DNA of 64,000 bases from Burkholderiales bacterium (GCA_019635015.1 JAHCAG010000005.1:10810-74809); one strand, 5' to 3'. Counted from the first letter of the stretch, positions 1,851 to 51,378 are shown. Notes: generated from the sequence alone by a model not told the origin. Numbers and translations are program-made.

Positions 1851-1875
1851 ATATTAATAATGACTTGCTTGCATT
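1851..1875 (+). repeat. AT-rich box copy M1 (weaker: atattaataatgacttgcttgcatt)
   Basis: Intergenic. Shares ATATTAATAA with M3 and TTGCAT with M6, but the spacer is 2 nt shorter. Confidence 0.4.
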
Positions 1876-2015
1876 TCCTCCAGTAAAGGAGTACTTTCCC
1901 GCCCAGTTCATCGGCGGGAGTCCTCATCGTTAGTTTCAACCTGACATGGCGCGGCATCCTGGCAGCGGTCCTGCTGCCGGTCGCGTCGTCGGCCATTGCG
2001 GCGGAGTGGGGCCGG

Positions 2016-2786
2016 ATGGTGCTGCTGTCTTCTCCGGGCGAGCCGCTGCGCGCGGAAATCGAAGTGTCCGCCCCCTACCACAAGTCTGAAATTCCGGTGC
2101 TGCAGCTCGCGTCGGCCGAGGCCTATGCGCGCGCCGGCCTGCAGTACGACGCCGTGCTTGATGCGGCGCGCCTGCGGTTTGACCTGCGTGCCGACGGGCG
2201 TCCCTATTACGCCTTGCAATCGGCGCGGCCGCTTGCCGCGTCGCAGGTTGCGCTGCTGGTTGAACGCGTGGCGCCGGGGCCGCTGTCGCAACGTGCCTAT
2301 GTGCTGCAGATCGGTGGTACGGCGGATCGCGGCGCGGTGTTCGCGCCGGTTGAGCCGCGCAAACCGGCTGTGCCGCGTGTTGCTGCCACTGCGGACGATG
2401 CGCGCTGGCTGCGCGAGGTCGAGCGCCTGCAGGTGCAGGTCGATGCGCAGGGGCGGGCGCTGGCCGGCATGCTCGAACGTGTGGCTGCAATGGAATCGGC
2501 GGTGGCGGCATTGCAGCGCGGACTGGAAGCGCGGAGCAGTGCGGCCGCTGCGGCACCATCACCTGCCCCCGTCGCGGAGAAGCCGCCCGTTCCAGCACCG
2601 GCACCGGCGGCGGCATTGCCGCCCGCAGTGAGCGAGCGCACGGAACGCCAGGCCCTGTCGGCGTCCTGGGTCAATCACAGCCTGCTGCTGCTCGCTGCGG
2701 GTGTGCTGGTCCTGCTGCTGGGCATCGGCGGCTGGATGCTCTGGGGACCGCTTTCACGGGACGTGAAGGCGCCCGCGGCGCAGTAA
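2016..2786 (+). CDS. FimV N-terminal-domain-like membrane protein (short form)
   Basis: SSPGEPLRAEIEV motif typical of the FimV N-terminal domain, a central coiled-coil, Ala/Pro-rich linker and C-terminal TM helix. An in-frame signal-peptide-like stretch (WRGILAAVLLPVASSAIA) lies upstream of the tracked ATG, so the true start is probably near 1941 (see finding). Confidence 0.6.
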   Translation: MVLLSSPGEPLRAEIEVSAPYHKSEIPVLQLASAEAYARAGLQYDAVLDAARLRFDLRADGRPYYALQSARPLAASQVALLVERVAPGPLSQRAYVLQIGGTADRGAVFAPVEPRKPAVPRVAATADDARWLREVERLQVQVDAQGRALAGMLERVAAMESAVAALQRGLEARSSAAAAAPSPAPVAEKPPVPAPAPAAALPPAVSERTERQALSASWVNHSLLLLAAGVLVLLLGIGGWMLWGPLSRDVKAPAAQ

Positions 2787-2992
2787 TGCTTCTGCGCGCG
2801 CTGATTTAGCCGTTTTCCGGCGTTTTTCCGGCGTTTTGCGCCATTTTGGGCGCTATTTTCGCCCCTGCAAGTCTCGCGCAAGTCCTCCGCAAGCACTGCG
2901 CAAGAGCCCTCTGTAACCATCACGATCACCAGATCGCCCGCCGCTGCTGCGGCGCGGTGCCCTGCCTTTTGTTTTTTCTGGAGGAGTTCGTG

Positions 2993-3181
2993 ATGAAAAC
3001 AATTATTCCTGCGATCGGTTTGGCCCTGCTCTCGCTGTCAGCCTGGGCCGATGAAGTAGCGATTCCCGCGCCGGAAGAAGTCAGCCCGACGGCAATGATC
3101 GTGGTGGTGTTGCTGATGGTGGCGATGGTCGGCGGTTTTATTGCCTTCACGGTGTTGAAGGACCGCAAGAAAGACAAGTGA
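2993..3181 (+). CDS. small secreted/membrane protein (signal peptide + one TM helix)
   Basis: Internal ATG at 2993 preceded by GGAGGAG (2979-2985). 62 aa: MKTIIPAIGLALLSLSAWA signal, hydrophobic MIVVVLLMVAMVGGFIAFTVL, basic tail. The upstream part of tracked ORF 2846..3181 is not protein-like. Confidence 0.5.
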   Translation: MKTIIPAIGLALLSLSAWADEVAIPAPEEVSPTAMIVVVLLMVAMVGGFIAFTVLKDRKKDK

Positions 3182-3329
3182 TGCGGCACCTGATGTGACC
3201 GCTCCAGCGCGCGCATGGCGGCGCAGGGTATTCCCTCCCTCCCTGCACCCTGGGCCGCCGGGGAATGCGCGCGTGAAGACGGGGAAGGGGCGCAATGGAA
3301 CAGGCAGGCCCCTTCCCCTGAAGGTGTAA

Positions 3330-3350
3330 CATAACTATTTGATTTTATTG
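3330..3350 (-). repeat. AT-rich box copy M2 (minus strand: CAATAAAATCAAATAGTTATG)
   Basis: Between convergent genes. Contains an exact WATCAANNNNTTR match (AATCAAATAGTTA). Confidence 0.65.
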
Positions 3351-3386
3351 AAAAAATAAACCCGGCGCACCAAGGGCCGGGTTTAT
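3345..3386 (-). terminator. rho-independent terminator downstream of the alpha-hydroxy-acid dehydrogenase gene
   Basis: Stem aaacccggc (3358-3366) / gccgggttt (3377-3385). On the minus strand it is followed by a U-run (plus-strand aaaaaataaa 3351-3360). Confidence 0.6.
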
Positions 3387-3433
3387 CGGATGCCGGCGCA
3401 AGGCCGGCATGACGGTGGGGCTGATACGGCGGT

Positions 3434-4663
3434 TTACGACTCCGCAGCCTTGCCTTCGACGACGCGCAGTTGCGGGCGCTCTTTCGGTGCGCGCAGTTCG
3501 TGTTTGTCGGCAAACAGCAGGCACTGCGGGCCGATGTCGGCGATGGTGTTGCAGGCAAGGAGCGCCATGTTGCGGTGGATTTCGTCGCGGTAGATCTGCA
3601 GCGCGCGCGCCGCACCGGCTTCTCCTCCCGCCGCTACGCCATACAGCGTCGAGCGGCCGACCATGACGGCATTCGCGCCGAGTGCCAGTGCCTTGACGAC
3701 GTCACTGCCGCGGCGGATGCCGCTGTCCATGAAGATGGTCGCGCGTTTGCCCACCGCATCGACGATTTCCGGCAGCACTTCGATCGGCGAGACGATGCCG
3801 TCGAGATTGCGTCCGCCGTGGTTGGAGACGTCAATGCCGTCGGCGCCGTGGTCCACCGCGGTGATCGCGTCCTGCGGGTCGAGGATGCCCTTGACGATCA
3901 GCTTGCCCGGCCAGATCTTGCGCAGCGCATCGAGGTCGGCCCAGCTGATCGAATCGGTGCGCAGGCTGGCGCGTCCGGGCGGGCCCTTGGTCATTTTTGC
4001 CTTGGCGGCTGCCGGGTAGTTGGCATACATCGGCATGCCGGTGGTCATCAGGTAGCGGCCCATCACGCCCATCAGCCAGCGCGGGTGCGTCGCCATGTCC
4101 CACATGTTGCGGGCGTTGAAGCTGAAGGGCAGGGTGAAGCCGTTGCGCAGGTTGTATTCGCGGTTGCCGGCGGACACGCCGTCGACGGTGACCACCAGCG
4201 TCTTGTAGCCGGCGGCCTTGGCGCGGTTGACCAGTTCATGCGACATCGAGCGGTCCGGCCACAGGTAGAGCTGGAACCAGAGGTCGCCGCCGGCTTCGTC
4301 GGCGACGCGCTCCATCGCGGTGATCGAGCCGGTGGCGAGCGTGAAGGGGATGCCGGCGGCGCGCGCGGCCTTGGCGAGCTTGATCTCGCCTTCGTGCCAC
4401 AGCAGGCCGGCGACGCCGGTGGGGGCGATCACCAGCGGCATCTTGTACTTGGTGCCGAAGATCTCGGTTTCCTGCGAACGCTTGGAGACATCGACAAAGG
4501 TGCGGGTGCGGAAGCGGATGCGGTCAAACACTTCACGGTTGTTGCGCAGCGCGACTTCGTCTTCGGTGCCGCGGTCGACGAATTCGAAGAAGCCGCGCGG
4601 CACGCGTTTCATCGCGATCTTGCGCAGGTCGAATATGTTGTAGGCCTTCAGGTTGTCGCTCAT
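3434..4663 (-). CDS. FMN-dependent alpha-hydroxy-acid dehydrogenase/oxidase (LldD / mandelate dehydrogenase family)
   Basis: 409 aa. Family-typical N-terminus (FDLRKIAMKRVPRGFFEFVDRGTEDEVALRNNREVFDRI), PLVIAPTG, DGIDVSNHGGRNLDG and GRSTLYG motifs. Confidence 0.85.
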   Translation of the reverse strand: MSDNLKAYNIFDLRKIAMKRVPRGFFEFVDRGTEDEVALRNNREVFDRIRFRTRTFVDVSKRSQETEIFGTKYKMPLVIAPTGVAGLLWHEGEIKLAKAARAAGIPFTLATGSITAMERVADEAGGDLWFQLYLWPDRSMSHELVNRAKAAGYKTLVVTVDGVSAGNREYNLRNGFTLPFSFNARNMWDMATHPRWLMGVMGRYLMTTGMPMYANYPAAAKAKMTKGPPGRASLRTDSISWADLDALRKIWPGKLIVKGILDPQDAITAVDHGADGIDVSNHGGRNLDGIVSPIEVLPEIVDAVGKRATIFMDSGIRRGSDVVKALALGANAVMVGRSTLYGVAAGGEAGAARALQIYRDEIHRNMALLACNTIADIGPQCLLFADKHELRAPKERPQLRVVEGKAAES

Positions 4664-5388: not shown

Positions 5389-5757
5389 TCAGTCGCGTTT
5401 CTTTTTCGCTTCGAGCTGCGCCTTCAGATCGGCGAAGGGATTGTGTGTCGCCGCCGGCAATTCCTTAGCGCTGTCGCTGCGTCCCGCCATGTCCTTGAGC
5501 TTGGAGTGTTCATGCTCATGGCAGTAAGTGCATAACAATTCCCAGTTGCTGCCGTCCGGCGGATTGTCTTCGTGATTGCCGTTCTTGTGATGGACTTCGA
5601 GCAGCTGCAGGTTGGCATGCGTGAAAGTGCGCGCGCAGCGCCCGCAAACCCAGGGATACATCTTGAGTGCCCGATCGCGGTAACCCGCAGCGCGGCGGTC
5701 AGCGTTGCGCCGCGCTTCGAGGATCACCTTGTCCAGGCGGTCATTGCTGGAGGTCAT
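5389..5757 (-). CDS. yajD: HNH nuclease YajD family
   Basis: 122 aa. YRDRALKMYPWVCGRCA ... VHHKNGNHEDNPPDGSNWELLCTYCHEHEHSK ... NPFADLK closely matches my recollection of E. coli YajD. Confidence 0.85.
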   Translation of the reverse strand: MTSSNDRLDKVILEARRNADRRAAGYRDRALKMYPWVCGRCARTFTHANLQLLEVHHKNGNHEDNPPDGSNWELLCTYCHEHEHSKLKDMAGRSDSAKELPAATHNPFADLKAQLEAKKKRD

Positions 5758-6549: not shown

Positions 6550-6580
6550 GAGCGGGATTCCGGAGATGGGTTCAATTAAA

Positions 6581-6614
6581 GATATCATAATGATATCAAT
6601 CATTCAATGATATC
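6581..6614 (-). promoter_or_regulatory. three (T)GATATC(A) palindromic boxes upstream of the antitoxin-toxin operon (putative operator)
   Basis: GATATC at 6581-6586, 6592-6597 and 6609-6614, in an AT-rich patch immediately 5' of the minus-strand TA operon. Confidence 0.45.
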
Positions 6615-8128: not shown

Positions 8129-8711
8129 CTAAGTCATTAACACTGGGGGTATTGCCGATTTTGTACGCTGGGATGCGGGCGTTCGTGATACTGGCGTGTG
8201 GCGTTCGCAAAATAACAAGACGGTCCGTCGTCTTCCGTCAATTTTATGGCACTCATGTCCGGGCAGCGGTGCCGAGTGGATTGAACATCTTAATCACATG
8301 TTTTTAAATGAATCTCCAGGGGGATGGCGGCGCATTCCTCATGGGATTCGCGGGTCAAACTTATCAATTTGGTAGATTTGACGATATCCCGATTCGCTTA
8401 CACCATCGAACAACAATAAACGGTCGATAGCGCAATGCTACGACCTTGCACAGGGGTGTGCGCATGCGGCAGTGGGGGGATTACTGCGGCAAGAAGAATG
8501 CCGGCCCGTTCTGGCGCCGGCTGGCGGGTTTTCTTTTTTCAAACGAATCGTTTCTCACGGAAATTGATTGTTTATTTCCACGGCGCTCTGTTGGCGACTG
8601 TGCGGGGCTGGGTGATCGATGCGTTTTTGTTCCGGGGGAATGTATGAATGTAAGACCTGCCCCCGATGTGTGTGCAGCATTATTGATGCGCAATTCGCCA
8701 CGGAGGCAGAT

Positions 8712-9311
8712 ATGGGTTTGGTAATTGCAGGCGCGCTCGCGCTTTATCTGCTGATAACAATCACGGTAGTCATCGGCGCAATCAGGTATGCGAAGAAAAA
8801 CGGCAAGAGTGCTAAGCGCTGGGGCTGTAGTGCTGCACTCGTCATGTACTTGATTCCGTTCTGGGACTGGATACCGACGATGGCAGTGCATCAGTATTCC
8901 TGCGCGACGGAAGCCGGGTTCTGGGTTTACAAGACGCCGGAGCAGTGGAAAAAAGAGAATCCGGGGGTGATGGAGACACTAATTAGTAACAGAGGGCAAG
9001 TTCGCAGTTTCTCCGGTGACAATGACAATTTTGTTCGTAAGAGTCTGATGAATCAACGTTTTGTTTACATCTCAAAACATAATGGCCCACTGTTCCTTAA
9101 TAGATGGCGATACGAACAACAAATTGTCGATAGTAAAACTGACGTTGTAATGGCTCGTAGCGTAGATTTCTCAACTTCGCATCAACGCCGTCAAGCTGGA
9201 TGGTCGGGTTGGAAATTTTGGTTAGACAGACAGCAATGTAATACATACGAAAATATAGATAGCGGATCACTTTCAACTATTGCGAAACAATTTGAGGGGG
9301 CTGAAAAGTGA
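8712..9311 (+). CDS. hypothetical 2-TM membrane protein with ~140-aa predicted periplasmic C-terminal domain
   Basis: ATG 8712 with GGAGG at 8702-8706. 199 aa: TM1 [23 protein letters not shown], basic loop [14 protein letters not shown]2 [20 protein letters not shown], Trp-rich soluble tail. Low GC. The stop overlaps the GTG start of the giant gene (GTGA, 9308-9311). Confidence 0.6.
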
Positions 9312-10210
9312 TCGACCTTCTAAAAGTTTTTCAACAAACGCAATTAGCTGAAGCGGCATACGCGAATTTTAGAGCAGTGGGTGGGGGAGTGATTTTCGAC
9401 AGAGATGGAATTATTGCCGCGCTTCAGGCTGAAAATTTCAGCGAATCCCAAGCCACTAACTTCGTCAACGAATGGGACGTAATCGACCATGTTCCTAACA
9501 CGGCCTTTGGCTTTTCGGCGACGATTTTCCGCAACCGGCAATCTGGCAATTACACATTAGCCATACGAGGCAGCAATGCTTCAAGCCTGGCGGACATTCT
9601 CAACGATATCAACATCATTGCGAGTGATGGGCTTGCTATTGCGCAATTAGTTAATCTCTACAACTTTTGGCAACGAGCTAATACTACACTTGACGCTGAA
9701 TACACTGCTGCTAAGGCAGTTGCGCAACTGGATGCAGGTAATGGAACGGTTTCCTACGCAATAAACTGGATTCCGTCCGCACAGCTCATTGATGCCAGTC
9801 TGCGGCAGGGTTCTGGCGCATTGACATCACCGCCTGCCATGCTGAATGTCACCGGCCACTCGCTCGGCGGTCATTTGGCGATGGCTTTTACCCGGTTGTT
9901 CCCTGATGTTCCTTCGACAGCACTCGTGGTCAACGCTCTGGGCTTCAAGCTTGGCACCCCCACTGTGGATTCTGTTTTTTCGCAGCTTGGGGGCGTGCCG
10001 GCATTTAACGCCTCGATAGTCACCAACATTTATGGCATTGCTGGTCCGGAGTTTGCTGCGATGAACAATGGAGTACTTCAGCAGCCCGGTGGTTATGAAG
10101 GTTTGTTTATCGAAAATGGTTCGATAAATCCGATTACCGGATTTCCGTCGCACAGCAGTGTTCAAATGACGGATAGCGCGGCCGTCTACGACCTTTTCAT
10201 TCGTCTATCC
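9308..10210 (+). other. lipase class-3 / family I.3-like catalytic domain of the giant protein
   Basis: aa 1-300: beta-strand-GHSLGG-helix motif at aa 183-188, preceded by the (A/S)IRGS strand motif typical of class 3 lipases. The DNA here is markedly lower in GC than the RTX part. Confidence 0.7.
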
Positions 10211-13200
10211 TCGCAAATCCGCAACAGCACTCCGACCGAAGCATTGGCAACGTTAAAGCCGCTGTTCGAAGCCAGCAGTGCCCAAGCCGACTCATCTCTA
10301 GAGCGCATCGTTGATGCGTTAGTCAATTTGCACGGACTGGACTTTGCTCCGCTGACTGCTGGCAAGATCGGTGATCGGGAGACGCTCTATGAGCGCATTG
10401 TGCCGCTTCAGGCGCTTGTTACGGGACTTTCCGACAACAACCCAGACGTACATGTGGATGTGCTGACCGCCACATCGGCTGAAAGCATGACCTTGCTGGC
10501 TTTGGATTCGACCGCGTTTGCCTACCGCTACGCCCTCAAAGAACTCAACCCTTTCGCCATCGTTGGAGACAATTCGCTTTACGCGATTCATAACCAGAAC
10601 GGTGAGCTCGATTTATATGATCCCATCGCTAAAACCGGCAATCTAACCAGCGATTGGATCGCCGACCGTGCAGAGTTTCTGGCCCGGAAGAACATGGCCA
10701 ATATTGCTGATGTGACGGCCATCATCAGTCCGGAGTTTGGCGTCGATAACCGCACGCAATTCAAGGATGTGGCGAGCGGTTATGCGCTTACGTTGTCGGA
10801 GGTCGGGTTGCCGGCACACAGCGTTTCAGCGCGACAGATCGCCTTTGGTTCGGATGCTTCCGATTTTCTGGAGGGCGGCTCCAAGTCAGACAAGCTCTAT
10901 GGCAATGCAGGCGCCGACTACCTGCGCGGCAAACTGGACAATGACCACCTCGAGGGCGGCCGTGGCATGGACGTCTACGAATACAACGGCCGCACGAGTC
11001 TGCTCAGCGCGTCCATGAATGACGGCAATGACACCCTCCTCGACACCGATGGCAAAGGCGTCCTGCGCTACGTTTTCAACGAAGGCGGTGTGGCGGGGAT
11101 TGGCGCTAAAAGCACCTCCACCATCATCCGCGACGTCAGCAACCGCGTCTCCGGCACGCAGTGGAACAGTGCAGACGGCAAATTCAGCTACCAGAGGGTG
11201 CAGAACGACCTGATTGTCACCATCACCGGAGATGCGGGTGGGCAGATTACCCTGAAGGATTTCAAGGAGGGGGATTTCGGCATTTACCTCCTTGATGAAC
11301 AGCGCGACCTTCCGGAGACCACGCGCGATATTTTGGGTGACAAGGGGTATGTCGAAAGCGCGGGGCAACGGACGCAACTGAAAGGGCCAGGCGGCGTGCC
11401 GCTGAAATATGGTGCCCCCGACTTTATCAGTCCTACGCTTTATCGGACCTATGAGCAGTTAGCGCTGGCCGAACCCATTCCGGCGGATTGGCACCACGCG
11501 CAACTATCCTCGCCCTATGTGCTTCACCACACGACGGTCAACGGTTCGGTCACGACCGAGTTCTACGCATTGCCGGTGACACTGGAATACCTGTATGTGG
11601 CCGAAGACGATCTGGGCAACCTGCAGCGCACGGCTGACGATCAGGCGGGTGAGGAGGATCGTCTTTACGACAGCGCGGGGAATGACCGGATCGCCTCGGG
11701 AAGCGGCAATGACCGGATTGACGCCTTTCGGGGCGGCGCTGATTTCATTTCCGCAGGGGTGGGGCGTGATGTGGTTATCGCCGGCGATGGGGATGACGTC
11801 ATAGAAGGCGGCGCCGATGGGATAGCGACCCTCGGCGGGGTGGTGACGGCAGGCGGCGACATGATCGCCGGCGGTGCCGGTAACGATGAAATTTATGGCA
11901 ACACGAGAATTGCCTTGTCGCTTGCCATTCAGCAGGGAGAGACGGCAACAGCCACCGATGCCATCGGAGATTTTCTGTCGGGTGGTGAAGGTAATGACTG
12001 GGTGGTGGGTGATGCTGGGAATGATTTTCTGGCTGGGGGTGATGGCGACGATATTCTGGTTGGCGGGGCAGGGCATGACAATCTGCTTGGGGATGACAAC
12101 CGCAAGGTGCAGGATGCGGGATGGAGCGTGGTGCGGCAGGTCAGTGGAGACGAGGTAAGCGGGCGCGTATATCGGATGGTTTTCAGTGGAACTGTGGAGG
12201 TTTCCGGCAGCGTCGAAGGGCGGGATGTCATCTACGGCGGCGCCGGGGGCGACTGGGCCTTTGCCGGTGGAGGTGATGATTTCATTGACGGTGGCAGCGG
12301 CGAGGATGTGCTGTTCGGCGGTGCTGGTTCCGATGTGGTGATCGGCGGTCTGCATAACGATGTGCTGATCGGTGACGGTGCAGAGGTGCCAGTTGAGCAT
12401 CATGGTGACGATTATCTTGATGGCGGTGAGGGCAACGACACGCTTTTCGGCGAGGGCGGCAACGACGTCCTGATCGGTGATGCTGGCCAGGATATCCTGC
12501 GCGGCGGAGACGGTAACGATATTCTGATTGGCGGCACGGGTGCCGATATCCTGATCGGAGGCGCTGGCAAGGATATTTACGTTTTCAATCGTGGCGACGG
12601 CACGGATACCATTTTTGATACTGCCGAAGCTGTCGGCAGTCCAGAGGCCAGCGTCATTGTGTTCGGCGAAGGTATCAGGAAAAGCGACGTCAAATTCGGC
12701 CCCGGCAGCCTGATGATCAATCTAGGCCCCTCCGACCCGGATGATCCGCTGGCAGGCAACGACCAGCTTCACTTCGAAAACTTCAATCACGATTATCCCG
12801 AGCTCACCGCCGCCATCGGCGAAATCCGTTTTGCCGACGGAACTTCGATGAGCTATGCCGATATCCTGGCGCAGGGCTTCGATATCGACGGCACGGCTTT
12901 GGACGACCTTGGTCCTGCCGCGCTGATCGGCAGTTCGATCACCGACCGCATTCGCGGCTTTGCCGGCAACGACGAACTGGAGGGCCGTGACGGCGACGAT
13001 GTGCTGATTGGTGATGGCGGATCGGACCGGCTGGATGGCGGCAATGGCAACGATGTGCTGGATGGTGGAGCCGGTAACGATTGGTTGGCCGGGGGAATGG
13101 GCAGCGACGATTACCGCTTTGTCAGTGGCGATGGCCTGGATACGCTGACGGAGGGTTCCCTGTTCGTGCGCGGACTGTCCGATCCGGTGCATGCGGACAG

Positions 13201-16200
13201 GATCATGTTCGGCGAGGGTGTGTCGCGGGAGCAGGTTTCCCTGTTGCGTTCGGCCGACGGCAATCTGAGCGTGCGGTATGGCGCGGGCGATGAAATCCTG
13301 ATCGAGGGGCAATACGGCACGGCGGGTGCGGATATCGAGCGCATCGTGTTTGCTGACGGGCAGACCATCGAAAAAGCCGAGCTTGATGCCCTGGAGATCG
13401 GGGTGCTGGAAGGCACCGGTGGCAATGATGAGTTGTACGGCACTGCGGGGAATGACGTTCTGCGGGGACATGAGGGTGACGATTATCTGGATGGCGGGCC
13501 GATACCCGAGCGCCGGGTGTCCGGTGGGACGCCAGTCACCGGCAACGACGTTCTGGAGGGTAGCGGCGGAGCAGATACCTATGCCCTGTATTGGGGCATG
13601 GGGGCAGACCGGATCATCGATATTGCCGACGGCGAAACCAACACGCTGCAGTTGCTGGACGGTGCGACTCTCGACAGCGTCAAGACTTCGCGCGATGGCG
13701 ACGATCTGCTGGTGACGATGCGCGGTTCGACTGATGGTGCGCGGATCGAGGGATTCTTTTCCGGGGGCGGTGCGGCTTCGTGGCAGATCGGCAGTGCTAC
13801 TGACGGCAACCGGCCCCTGCTGGAGCTTTACGTTGCGCAAAGCACGTCAACCAATGCGCATGCCGTTGAAGCGATGGAGGATTACAAGCAGCGCCTGCTG
13901 GGTGAATGGCGTGCCCGGGGGCAGTCTAATTTTGACCAGCCGACCCATGTTTATGTCAGATCGACCTGGTCGCAGACGATATCGGAGTGGACAAGACTGA
14001 TCCCGGCGTTACCAGAGCCCATCATTTATACGCAGACCATGGTCAACGACCCGGTGACCTATACGACGATAAACGGTTATGCGGTGCGACAGGGCGGCCG
14101 CTTTAACGCGCTTTCTCTGAACGGAAACTCGGCGTTTCAGCTTCATGTGGCACCGCTCATATTCAACCGGGAATCCGACGACAGCCGTATCGAGGTGGAA
14201 CAGTCTCCGGGTGGATCAACGGACTCGCAGTCTTACACCTATTTTGCAGGGATCAACGGGCCCTTCGACAACCAGCGCAGCTATTCGTACAGCAATGGTT
14301 TCATGGTCAACACCGTGACCGAGTCCAGTTACGAAGCGTGGATCCCGCTGTTTTTGCGTGAAGATGAGGAGGGTGATTTCAGCCTGAGTCATCACCAGAT
14401 CACCGAAAATCCGGTCATCGAGGAGATCGTTGCCGGCGCCGGAAACAATACGATTGTCGGAGCCTTGGGCAGCTCGGGCGACCACGTGGCCTTGATTGAT
14501 GCCGGTGCCGGGGATGATTCGATCGAGGCAGGGCAGTACGATTTTGTATTTGGCAATGAGGGTGACGACGAGATCTTCGGCGGCGCTTATGCCTATGGCG
14601 GCGATGGTAACGATACGTTGTCCGGCGGCCATTTTCTGTCCGGCGGAGCCGACGACGATGTGCTTGTTGGAGGGGAAGACGAGACCATTTTTCATTTCCG
14701 GGCCGACGAGGCGGGGCGGGACTGGGTCGAGGACAGAAATGGCATTTCGCTGAACGATTTTGCCGTTAAGGTGGGCCTTGTCGATTCTTACTCAAATCTG
14801 ATTTATGGCGGCAAGGTTCGTTACCTGAACAGTAATTTCTTGTATGAAGAGGCGTTCAGGAATTGGGTCGACAGGAATCCGTCATGGCCCGGTTTTTCTT
14901 ATGCAAACCTGGATCATGGCCTTCCCTACGAGGAAGCGCCGCAGGGCTACCATGTTTTGGGGAATTCCAGTGGATTTCCCCGGGGTGTTCCGGATAAATT
15001 GGCGAGGGGGTTGGCACCTGCCTGGGGGGATGGTTACTACACCTGGGTGTTCAATTCTGTCGAAGACATGATGCGGGATTTTGCAGATCTCGGTCTTGCA
15101 TTCAATCCTGCTGAAGTTCAAGTGATTCCCGGGGCGGCTGATCTGGCGGAATTCACGGCTGACAATCACGAGGCACTGAGACCGTTTTTTGATCAGGGCA
15201 TCCTGAAGAAAGATGTCGTGGAACTCGCAGGTTTCCGGCTGGAGACCGATGTTCTTGATGTCGGTTTTGTTCCGCCGGATGACACGGGCGACAGGCGGGC
15301 CCTGCGTCTGGTCTGGGGCGAAGATAAAGTCATCGAAGTTGAGCTGCCATCCGCGGATGATTTGATCGGGCATGGCGTCGAGACAATCAGTTTCGGAGGG
15401 GCTTCGTTCTACATTGGCGAGATGATCGAGTGGGCGGAGGAAACCGGAATTCTCGGAACACAGCTTGAGGATTACATCCAGGGCACGGACGCCAGCGATG
15501 TGATTCGCGGCATTGGTGGATGGGATTACATCAATGGCGGCGCCGGCGATGACATTCTGTCCGGCGGTACCGGTGCGGATACTTTTGCTTTCTTCGAAGG
15601 CGCCGGGACGGACACCATTCTCGATGGTGATGCCGAGGATGTCATTGAATTCGATGCCGGCATCACTTCCACGCAGTTGCGCCTGGGCCTGGGCTCTCTC
15701 CGCCTCGGTTATGGGGCGTCGGGCGACCAGATTCTGTTCGAGGGATTTGATCCGGACGACGTGCATGCCAACACCTTGTTCTCAGTGCTTCAGTTCTGGG
15801 ATGTCGAGGAGGTGGAACTGCCTGATGGCTCGCCTGATTTTGTCTGGACGCTGGTCGAAGAGCTGACATACGGACAAGTGCTGGAACGCGGTTTCGATCT
15901 TGTGGGAACCGCCGGGGATGATGTCCTGCGTGGCACCAATATCCACGATCGGTTCGAGGGCGGTGCCGGCAACGATTTGCTGACTGGCGGTTTCGGAAGC
16001 GACACCTATTTCTTCAGCGCTGGCGATGGCATTGACACGATCAACGACTTCTCGGAATCCGGGCAAATCAACCGGATTGTGCTGCGTGATCATCTGGAGG
16101 CTGACGTTGCCGGTGGCAGGGAAGGCGATTATGTGATCCTGCGTGTCGATGGATCCAGTGACGAGTTGCGGATCCGCTGGGATGACCCGACGGGCCTCGG

Positions 16201-19200
16201 TGTTGATGAGGTCGAGTTTGCCGACGGCGCGGTCTGGAACAGGGCTTATCTGGACAGTCTGGAGATTTCGGGCAATCTGCCGCCGGTGGTGGCGCTGCCG
16301 ATCGGGCCGGTCGCTTTCAACGAAGATGCAGCCTCGGGTTTTGTGGTTCCTGCCAACATATTCCAGGATCCGGATGCCGGCGATCTGCTGGGATATTCCG
16401 CTGCGCTGGCCGATGGCGGGGCGCTGCCGTCGTGGTTGTCGTTCGACCCGGAAACCCGGACCTTTTCCGGAACTCCTGCGAACGGCGATGTGGGCTCGTT
16501 CCAGATCCGGGTTACGGTGACCGACAGATATGGCGCTTCGGTATCCGACACCTTCAGCCTGTCGGTACTGAACACCAACGATGCCCCGGAGCTTGTGGCG
16601 GCACTGGCTGACCAGAGCGCCGTGCAGGGGCAGCCCTTCAGTTTTGCATTGCCCGCAGAAAGCTTTGCCGACGTGGATGGCGGTGATCTGCTGAATTACA
16701 CCGCGACCCTCGCCAATGGTGCGTCGTTGCCCGGGTGGCTGGTGTTCGAAGAGGCCACCCTGACATTCAGCGGCGTTCCCGGTAATGGTGATGTGGGTGC
16801 GCTGAAAGTCAGAGTGACGGCGACTGATGGTGACGGCGTATCGGTGTCCGATACCTTTGTGCTGCTCATCGCCAACGTCAACGACGCGCCGGAGTTGGCC
16901 ATTCCCTTGACGGATCAGGCGGTGACCGCGGGGGCGCTCTTCAGTTACGTGGTACCGGCCGACACCTTTGCCGATGCGGATGCCGGCGACAGCCTGAGCC
17001 TGAGCGCTCGGCTGGCTGATGGCAATGCCCTGCCCGGATGGCTCAGTTTTGATGCGGTAACAGGCACGTTCATCGGGACGTTCAGCGGCATACCGTCCGC
17101 ATCCAATGTGGGTGTGCTGGACGTGGAGGTCGTGGCGACCGACGACGGCGGCGCGACGGGAAGAGATTCATTCACGCTGACGGTCAATGCTGCGCCCGGA
17201 CTGGTGCTGACCGGTGCCGCCGGAGCCGATGTGCTTGAGGGTGGTTTCGGCAACGATTTGATCGACGGCCTTGCCGGCGCGGACCTGATGGCTGGCGGCG
17301 ATGGCGACGATACCTATGTGGTCGATCATGCGGGCGACGTAATTATCGAGCGCCCTGGTGAGGGACGCGACACGGTGCTGAGCAGCGTCAACTACATACT
17401 GCCTGATGAAGTCGAGAATCTGTGCCTCACCGGTGCCGCCAACCGCAATGCCACGGGCAATGCGCTCTCGAATGTCATCACCGGCAATGCGGGCGCCAAC
17501 CGGCTGGATGGCGGCGCGGGCGCCGATGTGCTGATTGGCGGACTGGGCAACGACATCTATATCGTCGATGACGCGCTGGATGCCGTGTTTGAGGCGGTGT
17601 CCGCCGGAACGGATACCGTGCTGTCGTCCGTCAGCCACGTGCTGTCGGCCAATGTCGAGCATTTGACCCTGACGGGTGAAGCCGTCATTGACGGCACGGG
17701 CAACGAACTGGCGAACACGATTACCGGCAACGCAGCCGCCAATATCCTGTGGGGCGGCATGGGCAGCGACCGGCTCATCGGTGGTGGTGGCATCGACACG
17801 CTGATCGGCGGCTTGGGCAATGATGTATATGTCATTGATTTTATTGATGATATTCTGGTCGAGTTTACGGGCGAAGGTACGGACACAGTGCAGGCGCCGT
17901 TTGACTACACCTTGCACGAACATTTCGAGAATCTCCTGCTGACCGGCGATGCGCTGGCAGGTATCGGCAACGCCGCGGCCAACCGGCTCACCGGCAATGC
18001 GCAGGCCAACGTGCTGTCCGGACTGGATGGCAACGACGTGCTGAACGGCGGCGGTGGCGCGGACATCCTTATCGGCGGCGCGGGAAACGATACCTATATC
18101 GTTGATGACGCGGCCGATGTGATCGTGGAACTGGCCGGTGAAGGGACGGATACCGTGCAAGCCGGCGTGACTTATACGATCGGCGAACACATCGAGCGAC
18201 TGGTGTTGACCGGCAATGCGGCAATCGACGGTACGGGCAATTCGCAGGACAACCGGCTCACCGGCAATGCTGCGGCGAACACGCTGCGTGGACTTGACGG
18301 CAACGACATCCTCGACGGCAAGGCGGGCGCCGACATCCTGATCGGCGGACTTGGCAACGACAGCTATATCATCGATCAGACCGATGATGTCGTCGTCGAG
18401 TTTTCTGGCGAGGGCATCGATACGGTTACTTCCAGCGTGGGTTATGTCTTGTCAGAGTATGTGGAAAACCTGATTTTGTCCGGAAGCGATGCTGTTGACG
18501 GAACAGGCAACGGGCTCGACAACCGGCTCACCGGCAACGCCGCGGACAACATGCTCTACGGACTGGACGGCAACGACGTCCTCGACGGCAAGGGTGGAGC
18601 GGATACCCTGATCGGCGGGGCGGGTGACGATGTGTATGTCATCGACAGCCTTGGGGATGTGGCCATCGAATACGCCGGGGAGGGCATCGACACCGTCCAG
18701 ACCACGCTGGCGTGGACGCTCGCTGATCACCTGGAAAACCTGTCCCTGACCGGGGCGGCAGCGATCGACGGTACCGGCAATGCCGCCGACAACATCATTG
18801 TCGGCAATGCCGGAGCCAATGTTCTGAGAGGACTTGATGGCAATGATCTGTTGGATGGCGGCACGGGTGCTGACACCCTGATTGGCGGTGCCGGTGATGA
18901 CCATTATGTCGTTGAACGGAGCACGGATGTGGTGGTTGAGGCCGCAGAAGAGGGTGTCGATACGGTTTACAGTCGTGTGACCTGGACACTGGGTGATCAT
19001 CTGGAGCATCTGGTGCTGACCGGCACGGCCAATACAGCGGGCACCGGCAATGCGCTCGACAACAGTATTTTCGGCAACACCGGCAACAACACGCTGGATG
19101 GCAGGGGCGGGGCTGACTTCATGGCCGGCGGGCTGGGTAACGACACTTATATGGTTGATGACGCCGGCGACGTTGTGTCTGAATCGGCAGGGGGCGGCAC

Positions 19201-22800: not shown

Positions 22801-22839
22801 GCAATAAATATTAATAAAAACAAATAGTTATGTTATTGC
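22801..22839 (+). repeat. AT-rich box copy M3 (gcaataaatattAATAAAAACAAATAGTTATGttattgc)
   Basis: Between convergent genes. The core is flanked by the 7-bp inverted repeat GCAATAA/TTATTGC. 24 of 25 nt match copy M2. Confidence 0.65.
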
Positions 22840-28980: not shown

Positions 28981-29152
28981 GCGATCTCCTTTGGTGTTGT
29001 GGCTGCTTCGCGCGCCGTCTTTTTTATATGCGATCGTGCGATCCGTCGCTCCACGCGCAACGTCAAGGGTAGATGAAAGCGCCGCGGCAATGCAAACGCT
29101 TTCATTCGGCGTCGGATCCGTTGCGCCGGTCGTCATGGCGCGTTGTGGAATG

Positions 29153-29175
29153 CGCAATAAAAACAAAGCATTGCG
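29153..29175 (+). repeat. AT-rich box copy M7 (CGCAATAAAAACAAAGCATTGCG)
   Basis: In the divergent tctC / homospermidine synthase intergenic region. The arms CGCAAT/ATTGCG are inverted repeats. Confidence 0.6.
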
Positions 29176-29325
29176 AAATTCCTGCGAGCGCCGCATGGCC
29201 GGTCGCAGATGACGCCGGCATTGGCGAAGTGGTCCCGCGGCCGCAGGCCGCCGTCATTGCTGTGCCGGCCGGGTAAATGTTGTTAGACTCCGGGTTCTCG
29301 AAAAACGACAACACCAGTTTATGAA

Positions 29326-37457: not shown

Positions 37458-39827
37458 ATGCTAGAGATTGAGCTGGACGGCAAGCTGATGGAAGTGCCTG
37501 AAGGCAGCACCATCATGGATGCGGCCAACCAGGCCGGCACCTTCGTGCCGCACTTCTGCTATCACCGGAAGCTGTCGATCGCCGCCAACTGCCGCATGTG
37601 CCTGGTGCAGGTCGAGAAGGCGCCCAAGCCGCTGCCCGCCTGCGCGACGCCGGTCACCAACGGCATGAAGGTGTGGACGCACTCGGATGCCGCCGTCACC
37701 GCGCAGAAGGGGGTGATGGAGTTCCTGCTGATCAACCATCCGCTCGACTGCCCGATCTGTGATCAGGGCGGCGAATGCCAGCTGCAGGATCTGGCCGTGG
37801 GTTACGGCGGCAGCGAATCGCGTTACGCGGAAGACAAGCGCGTCGTCGCCAACAAGAACCTCGGACCACTGATCTCGACCGACATGACGCGCTGCATCCA
37901 CTGCACGCGTTGCGTCCGCTTCGGTCAGGAGATCGCCGGCATCATGGAACTGGGCATGATCGGCCGCGGCGAACATTCGGAAATCATCACTTTCGTCGGC
38001 AAGACCGTCGACTCGGAGCTGTCGGGCAACGTGATCGACCTCTGTCCGGTCGGCGCGCTGACCTCGAAACCCTTCCGCTACAGCGCACGCACCTGGGAGC
38101 TGACGCGCAAGCCCTCGGTCAGCCCGCACTGCGGCCTCGGCTCCAACCTGACTTTGCAGGTCAAGCAGAACCGCGTGATGCGGGCGCTGCCGCGGGATAA
38201 CGAGACTGTCAACGAGTGCTGGCTGTCGGACAAGGACCGTTTTTCCTACGAGGCGCTCAATTCCGAGCAGCGCCTGGCGAAGCCGATGCTGAAGCGCGAC
38301 GGCCGCTGGCAGGACGTCGAATGGCCGGTGGCGCTGGAATTCGTTGCGTCTGAACTGAAACGCGTCAAGGCCGCGCACGGTGCCGATGCGATCGGCGCGC
38401 TGGCGACGCCATACCAGACACTGGAGGAACTGCACCTGCTGCAGAAACTGCTGCGCGGCTTTGGCTCCGGCAACGTTGATTTCCGCCTGCGCCAGACTGA
38501 CTTCAGCACCGACGGCAAACTTGCCGGCGTGCCCTGGCTCGGCATGAGCATCGCGGAATTCGCGCAGCTCGACCGCGTGCTGGTGATCGGATCCACGCTG
38601 CGCAAGGACCATCCGCTGCTGGCGCACCGGCTGCGTCAGTCAACGAAGAAAAAGACCGAACTCAGCCTGATCCACGCCGCAGATGACGAGCTGCTGATGC
38701 GGGTCGCGCACAAGGCGATTGTTGCTCCGGCGCTGTTGCCGCAGGTGCTGGCGCAGGTGGTCAAGGCCGCGTCTGCGCTGAAAAATGTCGCTGTCCCGGA
38801 GGCGGTGCGTGCCTCGGTCGAAGGCGTGGCCGTGACTGACGCGGCACAAGGCATTGCCGGAAGTCTCGCCGCGGGAGAGAAGGCGGGCGTGTTCCTCGGC
38901 AACTTTGCGGAACAGCACGCCGCTGCAGCCACCTTGCAAGCGCTGGCCCAGGCCTTGGCGCAGATCCTCGGCTGTCCCTTCGGTTTCCTCGGTGCCGCGG
39001 CGAACAGCGTTGGCGGTTATGTCGCCGGCTGTGTACCCAATGGAAAACTTCCGGGAAAAAATGCGCGTCAGATGATCGAGGCGCCGCTGAAGGCCTACCT
39101 GCTGCTCGGCGCCGAGCCGGAACTCGATTGTGCGAATCCGCGTGCTGCCATTGCCGCGATGAAGCAGGCTGAGCTGGTAGTCGCTTTGAGTCCGTTCCAG
39201 CATGGGGCCACTGAATACGCGAACGTGATGCTGCCGATCGCGCCATTCACCGAAACCGCCGGCACTTTTGTCAGCACCGAGGGGCGGGTGCAGACCTTCA
39301 ACGGCGTGGTGAAACCGCTGGGTGAAACCCGTCCGGCGTGGAAGGTGCTGCGTGTGCTCGGCAACCTGCTTGGACTGGAGGGCTTCGAACACGACGGCGC
39401 CGATGACGCGCAGCGTGAAGCACTCCACGGAAAATCTGAAATAACTAATAAAAACAATAACTTGCAAAATGTCACCGGAGTGCTGCCGGTTGTGGCGACG
39501 GGGGTTTCGCGGATTGCCGAGGTGCCCATCCATGCCGCCGATGCGCTGGCGCGGCGCGCCCCCAGCCTGCAGAAAACCCGCGATGCGCTGCCGCCGCTGG
39601 CGGTGATGAACCGCAGGCTGGCCGATCGCCTGGGCCTGCGCGACGGTGATCTGGTCCGGATTTCCCAGGATGGCGGCGAAACCCTGCTGCCGTACGCGCT
39701 TGATGACGGATTGCCGGACGACTGCGTGCGCATCGCGCTGGCACGCGCGGAAACCGCGTTGCTCGGTGATGCGGCGGCGCCGCTGGCAATCGAACGCGTC
39801 GTCCAGGCGCAGAAGGCGACCGCGTGA
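37458..39827 (+). CDS. nuoG: NADH-quinone oxidoreductase subunit G
   Basis: 789 aa. [39 protein letters not shown] Fe-S motifs. Confidence 0.95.
39447..39467 (+). repeat. AT-rich box copy M4 (AATAAAAACAATAACTTGCAA) inside nuoG
   Basis: Lies in frame within nuoG and encodes part of [13 protein letters not shown]. Confidence 0.6.
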
Positions 39828-44397: not shown

Positions 44398-45891
44398 ATG
44401 ATGCAGGGATTACCGTTACTGAGCCTCGCCATCTGGGTGCCGATTGTCGCCGGTGTCGCGGTGCTGTTCACCGGCGGTGACCGCAACGCGCAGGCTGCCC
44501 GGGTGATCGCATTGATCGGTGCCGTGCTCGGTTTTGCGGTCACGGTGCCGCTTTATGCCGGATTCGACCTGCAGCAGGGCGGATTCCAGTTCGGCGAGCT
44601 GAGGCCCTGGATCGAGGCCTTCAACATCAACTACCACCTGGGCATCGACGGCATTTCGCTGCTGCTGATCCTGCTCAACAGCTTCACCACCATACTCGTC
44701 GTCGCTGCGGCCTGGGAGGTGATCCGGACCCGCGTCGCGCAGTACATGGCGGCCTTCCTGGTGCTGTCGGGGCTGATGAACGGCGTGTTCTCCGCGCTCG
44801 ACGCGATGCTGTTCTACGTGTTCTTCGAGGCGACGCTGATCCCGATGTTCATCATCATCGGCGTCTGGGGCGGGTCGAACCGGGTTTACGCGGCGATGAA
44901 GTTTTTCCTCTACACGCTGCTCGGCTCGCTGCTGTCGCTGGTTGCGCTGATCGTGCTCTACAACGCCGCGGGCGGCAGCTTCGCCTTCTTCGACCTGTAT
45001 CGCACGCCTTTGCCGATGTTGTTGCAAGTATTTGTTTTTATTGCTTTTTTCATGGCTTTTGCGGTGAAGGTGCCGATGTGGCCGGTGCACACCTGGCTGC
45101 CCGACGCCCACGTCGAGGCGCCCACCGGCGGTTCGGTGGTGCTGGCGGCGGTCATGCTGAAGCTCGGTGGTTACGGTTTCCTGCGGCTGTCCCTGCCGAT
45201 CGTGCCCGATGCCAGCCAGTACCTGGCGCCCGTGGTGATCTTCCTGTCGCTGGTCGCCGTGGTTTACATCGGGCTGGTGGCACTGGTGCAGGCGGACATG
45301 AAAAAACTGATCGCCTATTCTTCGATCTCGCACATGGGTTTCGTCACGCTGGGCATCTTCCTGTTCAACGCCCAGGGTGTCGAGGGCGCAGTGATCCAGA
45401 TGATTTCCCACGGCTTTGTCTCCGGCGCGCTGTTCCTCTGCGTCGGCGTGCTCTATGACCGCATGCATACGCGTCAGATCGCGGATTACGGCGGGGTTGC
45501 CAGCCGCATGCCGGTATTCGCCGCGCTGTTCATGCTGTTCGCGATGGCCAACGCGGGGCTTCCGGGTACCAGCGGCTTTGTCGGCGAATTCCTGGTGATC
45601 ATGGGCGCGGTCAAGGTCAATTTCTGGATTGCCTTCGCCGCTGCAATCACGCTGATCTTCGGCGCCGCCTATACGTTGTGGATGTACAAGCGGGTGATGT
45701 TCGGCGCGGTGACCAACGAACATGTCGCGCAACTGAAGGACATCAACATCCGCGAATTCCTGATCCTCGGCGTGCTGGCCCTGCTGACCCTGGTGATGGG
45801 CGTCTGGCCGCAGCCTTTTGCCGAGGTGCTGCATGTTTCCGTCAGTGAACTGCTGGCCCACGTCTCGTACAGCAAACTTCCGGTGCAATAG
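44398..45891 (+). CDS. nuoM: NADH-quinone oxidoreductase subunit M
   Basis: 497 aa. [39 protein letters not shown]. Confidence 0.95.
45022..45044 (-). repeat. AT-rich box copy M5 (minus strand: GCAATAAAAACAAATACTTGCAA) inside nuoM
   Basis: Carried by codons TTG CAA GTA TTT GTT TTT ATT GCT of nuoM. Confidence 0.6.
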
Positions 45892-47672: not shown

Positions 47673-47677
47673 GCCGG

Positions 47678-48250: not shown

Positions 48251-48269
48251 CCCCGGCCGAATCGCCGGT

Positions 48270-50288: not shown

Positions 50289-50311
50289 GCGTTTTCTCCT
50301 TCCCCTTCGGG

Positions 50312-51238
50312 TCAGTGGACGACGGCCGGTTCCTGCAGGCCGTTCTGGCGCGACACCAGGCGCTGCATCAGTTTCAGGTCGCGGGTGGTCAGGCGCAGCG
50401 CCGCGTCGACCCAGACGCCGACAACGTCCTCGAGCTCCTCGAAGGTGATCTGGTGCACGCGGCGGCGCACCGCGGCGAGCGCGGCCATGCCGTTGCGCGA
50501 GCGCGAGCGCTGCTTGATCAGTGCGTTGACTGCGGCTTCACCCTCGCCATCCTCGGCGACCACGTCGATCACCCCCAGATCGTGCATTTCCTCGGCGCTG
50601 TAGATTTTTCCCGAAGCAATGATGCTTTCGGCGGCGCGCTGGCCGACCTTGCGGTCGAGGAAGGAATAGGCGCCCATGCCCGGGAACAGGTTGAACAGGA
50701 TTTCCGGGAAGCCGAAGCGCGAGCCCCGTTCGGCGACGATCACATCGCTGGACAACGCGGCTTCGAAGCCGCCACCCAGGCATTCGCCCTGTACCAGCGA
50801 GACGGTGGTCACGGGCAGGTCGTGGCCGATGTAGTTGCGGTAGAGCACATCGATGCAGGCACGGCCGTAGGTGGACAGTGCATTGCGGTCGCGACGGTCG
50901 ATTTTCTGGCGGAACAGTTCGAGGTCGCCGCCGAGGTTGAACACCCCGGGCATGCCTGAGGCAAGGATCACGTAATCGATGGGTTCGCTACCGCCCCCGC
51001 AGTCGATCGAGCCGCCGGTTTCCGTGACAAAGTTGTAGTAGGTGCGGATGTCGGCGAGCAGGCCGGGGTTGAAGCAGGGACGCGGTGCCGCGGTCCAGCG
51101 CGACCACAATGCCCGGGTCTGGCGGTCGAAATGCGCGTGCAACTGCGGCGAGAAGCGGAACTCGGTGTTGCGGCTGAAATCCGGACGGACTGCGGCGTGG
51201 TGGACGTCGATGACGGCTGCCGGCACTTGCATTTCCAT
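50312..51238 (-). CDS. rpfF: DSF-family signal synthase, RpfF-like crotonase (enoyl-CoA hydratase/isomerase superfamily)
   Basis: 308 aa. VFNLGGDLELF, VSLVQGECLGGGFEAALSSDVIVAE, FPEILFNLFPGMGAYSF, IWVD-type C-terminus. Colinear by eye with my recollection of Xanthomonas RpfF (FNLGGDLALF ... LVQGNALGGGFEAALS ... LPEVLFDLFPGMGAYSF). Confidence 0.8.
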   Translation of the reverse strand: MEMQVPAAVIDVHHAAVRPDFSRNTEFRFSPQLHAHFDRQTRALWSRWTAAPRPCFNPGLLADIRTYYNFVTETGGSIDCGGGSEPIDYVILASGMPGVFNLGGDLELFRQKIDRRDRNALSTYGRACIDVLYRNYIGHDLPVTTVSLVQGECLGGGFEAALSSDVIVAERGSRFGFPEILFNLFPGMGAYSFLDRKVGQRAAESIIASGKIYSAEEMHDLGVIDVVAEDGEGEAAVNALIKQRSRSRNGMAALAAVRRRVHQITFEELEDVVGVWVDAALRLTTRDLKLMQRLVSRQNGLQEPAVVH

Positions 51239-51297
51239 GATGTATCTCCCTGTCGAGGCGTTGATTGAGCGGGAAGCACAGTGCTTTCCCGGGCTTG

Positions 51298-51326
51298 ATT
51301 AGAGGCCAGGACACGCAGGCCGGCAA
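51298..51326 (-). promoter_or_regulatory. candidate sigma70 promoter for the rpfF-like gene
   Basis: Minus strand TTGCCG (51326-51321) - 17 nt - TCTAAT (51303-51298), about 55 nt upstream of ATG 51238. Confidence 0.3.
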
Positions 51327-51356
51327 ATCTAACAAATTGGGAGATTTTAAAATAAT

Positions 51357-51378
51357 CATTAAAAACAAATGGTTGCAT
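51357..51378 (+). repeat. AT-rich box copy M6 (CATTAAAAACAAATGGTTGCAT)
   Basis: In the divergent rpfF-like / aas-like intergenic region, about 30 bp upstream of a candidate minus-strand -35 element. Confidence 0.55.

Follow-up and report, generated by a model that had tools for sequence, protein, structure and literature searches.

A family of 34-bp AT-rich boxes with the sequence elements of integration host factor sites in an uncultured member of the Burkholderiales

The DNA analyzed here is a stretch of 64,000 nucleotides (GCA_019635015.1 JAHCAG010000005.1:10810-74809; the whole stretch is called the window below) that belongs to an uncultured bacterium within the Burkholderiales sensu lato. 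Its G+C content is ∼62% throughout, with a lower-GC stretch at 8–12 kb (50–57%), and the GC skew is uniformly positive along the window. The nearest relative in the genome collection is a Burkholderiales metagenome-assembled genome (MAG) with a NuoM identity of 88% (L001; loci from other genomes are given L numbers). Dispersed over the window are copies of an asymmetric AT-rich box of 34 bp, which reads approximately RAAAWWWTYAATAAAAWCAAWWACTTRYR when the window and the loci of relatives are taken together, and which resembles the sites bound by integration host factor (IHF). The copies found in the window are the following, with scores in bits from a 34-column position weight matrix (PWM) unless another matrix is named.

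1841 to 1874, plus strand: M1, TAAAACTTCAATATTAATAATGACTTGCTTGCAT, doubtful copy, 18.2 bits (19.6 bits with a 23-column PWM).
3325 to 3358, minus strand: M2, TATTTTTTCAATAAAATCAAATAGTTATGTTACA, 41.3 bits, with a perfect IHF core (AATCAA-ATAG-TTA).
17821 to 17854, minus strand: weak family-like site, AATATCATCAATAAAATCAATGACATATACATCA, 32.4 bits, with the 11-mer at one mismatch, inside an RTX-repeat gene.
22804 to 22837, plus strand: M3, ATAAATATTAATAAAAACAAATAGTTATGTTATT, 51.6 bits, with orthologous copies at L081:3437 and L090:3255.
29147 to 29180, plus strand: M7, GGAATGCGCAATAAAAACAAAGCATTGCGAAATT, 32.8 bits, with orthologs in L088, L089, L090, and L096 and a decayed copy in L081.
39438 to 39471, plus strand: M4, 48.6 bits, inside nuoG (37458–39827), on the sense strand.
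45018 to 45051, minus strand: M5, 47.8 bits, inside nuoM (44398–45891), on the antisense strand.
51349 to 51382, plus strand: M6, AAAATAATCATTAAAAACAAATGGTTGCATTCAT, 45.3 bits, with orthologs at L165:9859 and L161/L163:9847.

An earlier note on this DNA had described a family of near-identical AT-rich boxes, and we confirm this family in the window, with strong statistical support. Four exact copies of the 11-mer AATAAAAACAA were counted, at 22813(+), 29156(+), 39447(+), and 45042..45032(−), whereas 100 dinucleotide shuffles contained 0.01 on average. With one mismatch allowed, seven matches are found where 0.22 are expected. A PWM built from six boxes places M2–M7 at 33–39 bits, followed by a gap and then by the site at 17847(−) with 24.5 bits and M1 with 19.6 bits. 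Among the seven sites of the note, the six strong ones hold (M2–M7, four on the plus and two on the minus strand), whereas M1 is marginal. M1 has TCAAT and TTG in register, but the C that is invariant in the core of the family is a T, which makes it only a degenerate relative whose membership is doubtful. One weak copy had been overlooked, namely that on the minus strand inside the giant RTX gene; it possesses the A/T tract and AATCAA and lacks the TTR.

Loci of relatives were retrieved through NuoM (genome collection), through a saccharopine dehydrogenase-like protein (metagenomes), and through rpfF-like homologues. The anatomy of the box was read from 15 independent sites, one per orthologous group plus singletons. 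An IHF site extends over 34 bp and comprises four elements: a WATCAA core, a TTR that follows after four bases, a pair of AA steps at a distance of 9 bp into which prolines intercalate, and a tract of 4–6 A in the 5′ half (PMC1874591). In the boxes, positions 1–6 are rich in A (8–13 of the 15 sites, the others mostly having T) and never hold a C. This 5′ A-tract is located ∼12–17 bp upstream of the core C; compared with the H′ site of phage lambda, some copies, M5 among them, have it 1 bp out of register. Positions 10–11 are AA (14/15 and 13/15), position 12 is T in every site, and positions 13–16 are A, of which A13 and A14 are invariant.

The core begins with A at positions 15 and 16 in 15/15 sites, followed by W at position 17 (A in 10, T in 5), C18 and A19 (both 15/15), and A20 (14/15). 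Five of the 15 sites match WATCAA exactly, and the other 10 differ by the T to A change only (AAACAA). T25 and T26 are present in all sites. Position 27 holds only purines (A in 10, G in 5) and lacks both T and C, although the surroundings are rich in A+T. Within the four bases that separate the core from the TTR, A23 and C24 are preferred. The steps A10–A11 and A19–A20 lie exactly 9 bp apart. The 15 sites therefore combine a WATCAR-type core, a TTR at a distance of four bases, a 5′ A-tract, and AA steps 9 bp apart, and the IHF-type core and A-tract that the earlier note had seen extend to all four canonical elements at canonical spacing. In copies that are weaker or have drifted, the 11-mer and the middle of the box change, whereas A-tract, core, and TTR are retained, as in the M6 ortholog of L161 (AAAAATTACTTATAAATCAATATCTTA) and in a low-scoring site of L086 (AAAAATACTTTAATAATCAAGTATTTA).

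The boxes account for most AT-rich islands (at least 75% A+T over 30 nt) in the window, as 8 of the 10 islands are family boxes or weak relatives. In the lineage as a whole, WAWCAR-N4-TTR is present in 38 of 89 islands, compared with 1.5 ± 1.2 after base shuffling within the islands, and AT-richness alone thus does not yield the enrichment of the core. In outgroups, the pattern is found in 8 of 62 islands (1.1 expected), and islands are five times more numerous in the lineage than there. The excess in both sets indicates that IHF-type cores mark AT islands across the whole group.

It has to be considered whether the boxes act simply as AT islands, either by the physics of the DNA (melting or curvature under supercoiling) or as silencers nucleating an H-NS-like protein. 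The boxes are nearly the sole AT islands in a genome of ∼62% GC, and their A-tracts are roughly helically phased. Moreover, TCAATAAAAA agrees with 7 of the 10 positions of the high-affinity H-NS motif, TCGATAAATT, including the central TpA step. However, neither the invariant C18, T25/T26, and R27 nor the fixed register of the elements is explained in this way, and composition alone gives only the few core matches of the shuffled islands. Silencer nucleation within nuoG and nuoM would also be harmful, and we regard this explanation as very unlikely.

The genes in which or between which the boxes lie are listed below, together with their neighbors.

3434 to 4663, minus strand: lldD-like gene (FMN_dh family).
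9308 to 20731, plus strand: RTX-repeat gene (3807 amino acids) with 24 matched RTX nonapeptide stretches and He_PIG Ig-like and HCBP_related domains.
20739 to 22103, plus strand: HlyD-type membrane-fusion (secretion) gene, directly after the RTX-repeat gene.
Minus strand, next to M7: tctCBA operon, assigned to the TctC, TctB, and TctA families.
31.4 to 47.4 kb: tpiA-secG-tRNA-Leu(GAG)-nuoA..N.
50312 to 51238, minus strand: rpfF-like enoyl-CoA hydratase gene, named "DSF synthase" by one source.
Adjoining the rpfF-like gene: MerR-PAS-GGDEF-EAL gene.
51575 to 53698, plus strand: acyltransferase/AMP-ligase gene, divergent from the rpfF-like gene.

The lldD-like gene has an intrinsic terminator (stem 3374..3361 plus T-run), and M2 follows it immediately. 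M3 is found in a 105-bp spacer between the convergent genes for NnrU (plus strand) and an acyl-CoA synthetase-like protein (minus strand). M6 and M7 are located in divergent spacers, the former between the rpfF-like and the acyltransferase/AMP-ligase gene, the latter ∼50 bp upstream of the tctC start and ∼150 bp upstream of the saccharopine dehydrogenase-like gene. M4 encodes 10 residues in a variable linker of NuoG, and the sense strand of M5 encodes 12 residues of a transmembrane helix of NuoM. These contexts had been given essentially correctly before, although the word "essential" for the two coding regions was an assumption of the note.

The orientation of the boxes relative to genes is mixed; they occur in divergent, tandem, and convergent spacers and in the sense (nuoG) as well as the antisense (nuoM) direction. 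Such an arrangement fits an architectural protein rather than a promoter or an RNA signal. Four copies in the window do end with TTGCA(A/T), which is reminiscent of a −35 hexamer or of the −12 element of sigma-54 promoters, the upstream A-tract resembles an UP element, and M2 follows a terminator. Yet TTGCA, which the earlier note had included in the family consensus, is not conserved, since relatives read CTTAYR and only the TTR remains common to all. In consensus scans, the boxes showed neither a sigma-70-type pair of hexamers with a spacing of 16–18 bp in a consistent register (the single match nearby ends where M6 starts) nor a GC-rich hairpin with a subsequent T-run, the GG at −24 of sigma-54 promoters is missing on reading the sequence, and several boxes face the 3′ ends of converging genes or sit antisense in operons.

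At the RNA level, no consistent or stable hairpin is formed on either strand, most folds being no better than those of shuffled sequences and the structures varying between copies. The short inverted arms noted previously (GCAAT...ATTGC) are seen in M5 and M7 and, with a different register, in M3 and M6, but not in M2 and M4; they give no stable fold and thus do not characterize the family. A scan of the window with Rfam at gathering thresholds gave no match. We therefore consider it highly improbable that the boxes are promoters, whether as an element of the UP plus −35 type or for an alternative sigma factor, and the same holds for terminators and for signals in the RNA.

Several further features were observed next to individual boxes. 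In L082, a second, weaker IHF-like core (AAAATCACAATAAATCAATGGTTTGCG, 5440–5470) lies ∼40 bp downstream of a strong box (L082:5388), so that boxes can occur in tandem. Just upstream of the box orthologous to M3, L081 (3350–3410) and L090 (3170–3235) possess paired 16-bp palindromes, TTGAKNNNNNNMTCAA (e.g. TTGATGAATTCATCAA and TTGATGTTTACATCAA). They adjoin the gene in the position of NnrU and resemble FNR/Dnr-type boxes, with a center of 6 bp rather than 4 bp. Near M7, a strongly conserved leader, AAAAATTGNTAGACTCNNGNTTCCCGAAAAACGACAACACCAGTTTATGAAATGGC, is found upstream of the saccharopine dehydrogenase-like gene (29240–29325 in the window and at the same place in L081–L097). This leader persists in loci with a different upstream gene and is likely a promoter with a conserved element of the 5′ untranslated region.

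Some known motifs were compared with the boxes and set aside. A likeness to the dif/XerD arm (TTATGTTA in M2 and M3) and to the Ter sites of Tus was dropped, as the tail is present in two copies only and has no left arm or palindrome. By eye, none of the direct repeats of response regulators or the consensus sequences of Fis, Lrp, FNR, and NifA fits.

The two boxes inside genes bear on the level at which the constraint acts. On the sense strand of nuoM, the box reads TTG TTG CAA GTA TTT GTT TTT ATT GCT TTT. In nuoM, the G+C content at third codon positions (GC3) is 0.846, whereas the codons of the box have frequencies of 0.03–0.13, giving a joint probability of ∼1e-11 for the given amino acids. 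The window, L001, L161, L163, and L165 all have CAA .. GTT TTT ATT GCW TTT without change, despite many differences in the neighboring sequence. The next relatives (NuoM identity 78–80%) encode Q-V/I-L-I/V-F-I/L-A-F as CAG GTC CTG ATC TTC ATC GCG TTC; the same or similar NuoM residues are written with G/C-ending codons in L002, L003, L005, L006, and L022, again without an indel.

The nuoG box gives a comparable picture. GAA ATA nnn AAT AAA AAC AAY RAC TTR is constant in six genomes, synonymous positions included, while the codons flanking the box show ordinary synonymous variation. The joint codon probability of this box is 7e-9 at a GC3 of 0.85. Judged from codon usage, the intragenic boxes are maintained against codon preference by means of rare A/T-ending codons. 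Because the boxes in nuoG and nuoM are oriented oppositely with respect to transcription and the same sequence recurs in spacers, we infer that the constraint acts on the DNA rather than on mRNA or protein.

Compared with the box-free homologues of nuoM, the box differs by base substitutions only and not by an indel, indicating that the intragenic boxes arose by substitution and not by insertion. This bears on the question of whether the family is a miniature mobile repeat of the repetitive extragenic palindromic (REP), bacterial interspersed mosaic element (BIME), or miniature inverted-repeat transposable element type, or the remnants of one. In favor of such an origin, the copies are many and near-identical, and IHF sites are also dispersed by the RIP/BIME-1 elements of Escherichia coli, in which pairs of REP sequences flank an IHF site, and by the Correia elements of Neisseria. 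Like the boxes, these elements represent dispersed, stereotyped IHF-type sites that occur in many copies per genome, for the most part in spacers and often immediately downstream of genes.

The boxes differ from them in that the similarity is confined to 34 bp between unrelated flanks, without terminal inverted repeats, REP palindromes, or shared flanking sequence. No evidence of mobility was seen among the copies, which arose by point substitution even inside genes and are stable at orthologous positions. Of all the explanations considered here, a mobile repeat is the least probable.

The family is found in one lineage. Sites of at least 40 bits number 19 in 360 kb of the lineage (window included) and 0 in 1.84 Mb of other betaproteobacterial loci, a comparison that is partly circular, since hits from the lineage served to train the 34-column matrix. 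Copies in relatives had, however, already been recovered with the first matrix, which was derived from the window only. Exact matches to AATAAAAACAA amount to 19 in 342 kb of close relatives (11 loci) compared with 0 in 1.39 Mb of other betaproteobacterial loci with a GC content of at least 0.57. Even a generic pattern of the four IHF elements, devoid of family-specific columns, occurs 25 times in the 360 kb of the lineage (69.5/Mb) and three times in the 1.84 Mb of other loci (1.6/Mb). The density is ∼1 box per 5–10 kb, with six strong sites in the 64-kb window and ∼4 sites per 21 kb in relatives with an rpfF-like identity of 84–86% (L161–L166). Thirteen of the 15 independent sites are intergenic.

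The earlier note had proposed to look for the box at orthologous positions of related genomes, and it is indeed retained there: in nuoG in six genomes, in nuoM in five, at M7 in five (plus the decayed copy in L081), at M3 in three, and at M6 in three distinct ones, L161 and L163 having the same copy. Two more orthologous spacers carry boxes that are not present in the window. On these comparisons, the family is lineage-specific and, as judged from its retention, under purifying selection at the level of the DNA.

Lineage specificity is also a property of the DNA uptake sequences (DUS) of Neisseriaceae and the uptake signal sequences (USS) of Pasteurellaceae, and the earlier note had offered an uptake-type or species tag as one of its two alternatives. 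A tag for uptake or recombination would have spread by biased uptake or gene conversion. As in DUS and USS, the motif is short, present on both strands, and conserved among relatives, and its coding copies fall into tolerant protein regions and permissive frames and are kept at orthologous positions. DUS and USS, however, occur about once per kb, and the density of the boxes is about ten-fold too low. The boxes further differ by their strong intergenic bias, by a graded tail of degenerate sites, by their AT-rich IHF-like structure, and by the lack of inverted pairs that act as terminators. Orthologous copies lose the 11-mer and retain the IHF elements. This alternative of the note is not supported, and the probability that we assign to an uptake tag is accordingly small.

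The spacer of M6 provides a case in which the history of a site can be followed. In the outgroups L005, L006, L167, and L169 (rpfF-like identity ∼60–72%), this spacer contains GCAAAAAAGAGAAATCTATCAGTTTGTTAGATTTGC or close variants on the strand opposite to M6. The layout of the outgroup site is AAAAAA-N8-TATCAG-TTTG-TTA-GATTTGC (L005:16690–16730, L006:8810–8850, L167, and L169). The H′ site of lambda reads AAAAAA-N8-TATCAA-TTTG-TTG, and the outgroup site GCAAAAAAGAGAAATCTATCAGTTTGTTAGATTTGC is almost superimposable on it. L161 and L163 possess a slightly decayed version of the old site side by side with a family box. In the window and in L165, the core of the old site is lost (TGATAG to TGGGAG), although the flanking block GCAAATCTAACAAA is kept, and only the new box is present, ∼25 bp away and on the other strand. 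In the window, the remnant of the old site is the following.

51323 to 51356, minus strand: relic of an older canonical IHF-type site, with the block GCAAATCTAACAAAnTG kept and an AT tract in common with M6.

The replacement of a textbook IHF-type site by a family box in the same spacer provides the strongest indirect argument for a common function of the two. As a separate observation, the conservation of an H′-like site across outgroup lineages in the spacer between the rpfF-like and the acyl-ligase gene suggests IHF-dependent control of this putative signaling locus.

Taken together, we lean toward the view that the boxes are a proliferated, stereotyped, and lineage-specific family of high-affinity bending sites for IHF/DNABII or a very similar heterodimer. 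The IHF-like alternative of the earlier note is supported as far as sequence reaches, by the four elements, by their retention in drifting copies, and by the outgroup site in the M6 spacer, and it is on this basis that we infer IHF as the binder and the effect of its binding. One protein dimer would wrap and sharply bend each 34-bp box. The minor groove would be narrow at the 5′ A-tract, the kinks would lie at the two AA steps with their distance of 9 bp, and the protein would contact AAWCAA and TTR as the core. The boxes would thereby act at the level of the DNA as architectural elements, whatever the orientation of the genes. In the divergent spacers of M6 and M7, they probably shape promoter geometry, whereas a role as local organizers of the nucleoid or of topology is more likely for boxes after stop codons and inside long operons. 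In the nuo operon, which extends over 15 kb almost without intergenic DNA, the boxes would have been written into coding sequence and be held there by the rare A/T-ending codons.

The likeness to canonical IHF sites, in particular to H′ of lambda attP, comprises the 34-bp extent, the 5′ A-tract, the AA steps 9 bp apart, the WATCAA-N4-TTR core, and the asymmetry; some copies (M5) additionally have AAAAAAGCA and TTGCA in common with H′. In contrast to canonical sites, the boxes usually have an AAACAA core, conserve T12-A13-A14 and A23/C24, and in some copies place the A-tract up to 1 bp nearer to the core. They also differ in forming a large, near-identical, and lineage-restricted family with conserved intragenic copies. 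A full-text literature search for AATAAAAACAA returned, among the matches listed, only unrelated ones (phage, influenza, yeast autonomously replicating sequences, etc.), which leaves uncontradicted the remark in the earlier note that no described element has this consensus.

Several observations weigh against an assignment to IHF. The family is more uniform than the IHF sites of E. coli, and both the invariance of T12/A13/A14 and the preference for A23/C24 go beyond the described determinants of IHF binding. The core is AAACAA in 10 of the 15 sites, whereas the consensus is AATCAA. To our knowledge, IHF is universal in Proteobacteria, and a ∼40-fold enrichment in one lineage only hence needs an extra cause, for which an altered specificity or abundance of IHF, a second factor or partner protein, or a lineage-specific use are candidates. 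The distribution of the boxes is also not clean on one gene tree, as L100 and L109 (78% and 70% identity of the saccharopine dehydrogenase-like protein) have boxes and L098–L108 are without them. Finally, tblastn for ihfA, ihfB, and hup gave no hit in the window or in any locus of the lineage; given the universality of IHF, IhfA and IhfB are expected to be encoded by the organism.

Some of these points would be accommodated if the boxes were the sites of a different, lineage-restricted DNA-binding protein, for instance a novel nucleoid-associated protein or a global regulator, with the likeness to IHF being partial or convergent. Such a protein would explain why the family is limited to one lineage although IHF is universal, and why T12-A13-A14 are invariant and A23/C24 preferred, although none of them counts among the determinants of IHF. 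The boxes also carry more information than typical IHF sites, a content that is inflated by the picking of top PWM hits and that probably still exceeds the need of ∼1 site per 5–10 kb. Under this assumption, however, the presence of four IHF elements at the right spacing, with only R at position 27 and W at the third position of the core, would be a coincidence, and the turnover with a textbook IHF-type site in the M6 spacer would be another one. Moreover, the box is asymmetric and has neither the direct nor the inverted half-sites typical of dimeric regulators. We therefore judge a different protein to be an unlikely, if credible, binder.

The IHF-type reading can be extended to a role of the boxes in the chromosome as a whole. 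Tentatively, and with doubts of our own, we suggest that they may constitute a chromosomal signal common to the whole lineage and demanded by selection every ∼5–10 kb. Its reader would be IHF, either with a sharpened specificity or in combination with a partner peculiar to the lineage. Essential genes would then carry the signal wherever long operons leave no spacer, amounting to an architectural "punctuation" without a described counterpart. An organization of the chromosome with a spacing of 5–10 kb would account for the two intragenic boxes in a spacer-poor operon of 15 kb.

Other features of the window and of the retrieved loci stand apart from the box family. The G+C content of 50–57% at 8–12 kb suggests that the region of the RTX and HlyD genes was acquired as an island for an adhesin or for type I secretion. 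An AT-rich island at 6566–6614, ATGGGTTCAATTAAAGATATCATAATGATATCAATCATTCAATGATATC, contains three (T)GATATC(A) units, does not belong to the family, and may be an operator upstream of the RTX gene in this low-GC region; further non-family AT islands are located at 8279–8316 and 9232–9261. The tRNA-Leu(GAG) gene is the sole tRNA gene in the window and is unrelated to the boxes. Among the loci retrieved through NuoM, L013 (PGYK01000013.1), L064, L066, and L076 are 65–75% identical in NuoM, yet come from MAGs labeled as Methanomicrobiales archaeon, Enterobacteriaceae, Sphingomonadaceae, or Rhodanobacteraceae, probably owing to binning or labeling errors in the public records.

IHF-type architectural sites are a known kind of element, and what is unusual in this lineage is the scale, the uniformity, and the intragenic maintenance of the family. 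If the boxes are IHF sites, an architectural protein can impose a dense and nearly uniform family of sites on a GC-rich genome, with a pressure that overrides codon preference in respiratory-chain genes throughout the existence of the lineage. The family would then also represent a natural system in which the origin of sites by point mutation, their turnover, with old and new sites in one spacer, and their constraint on coding sequence can be followed. The 34-bp consensus provides a ready probe for binding assays, as well as a marker for binning and recognizing the genomes of this uncultured group of Burkholderiales.

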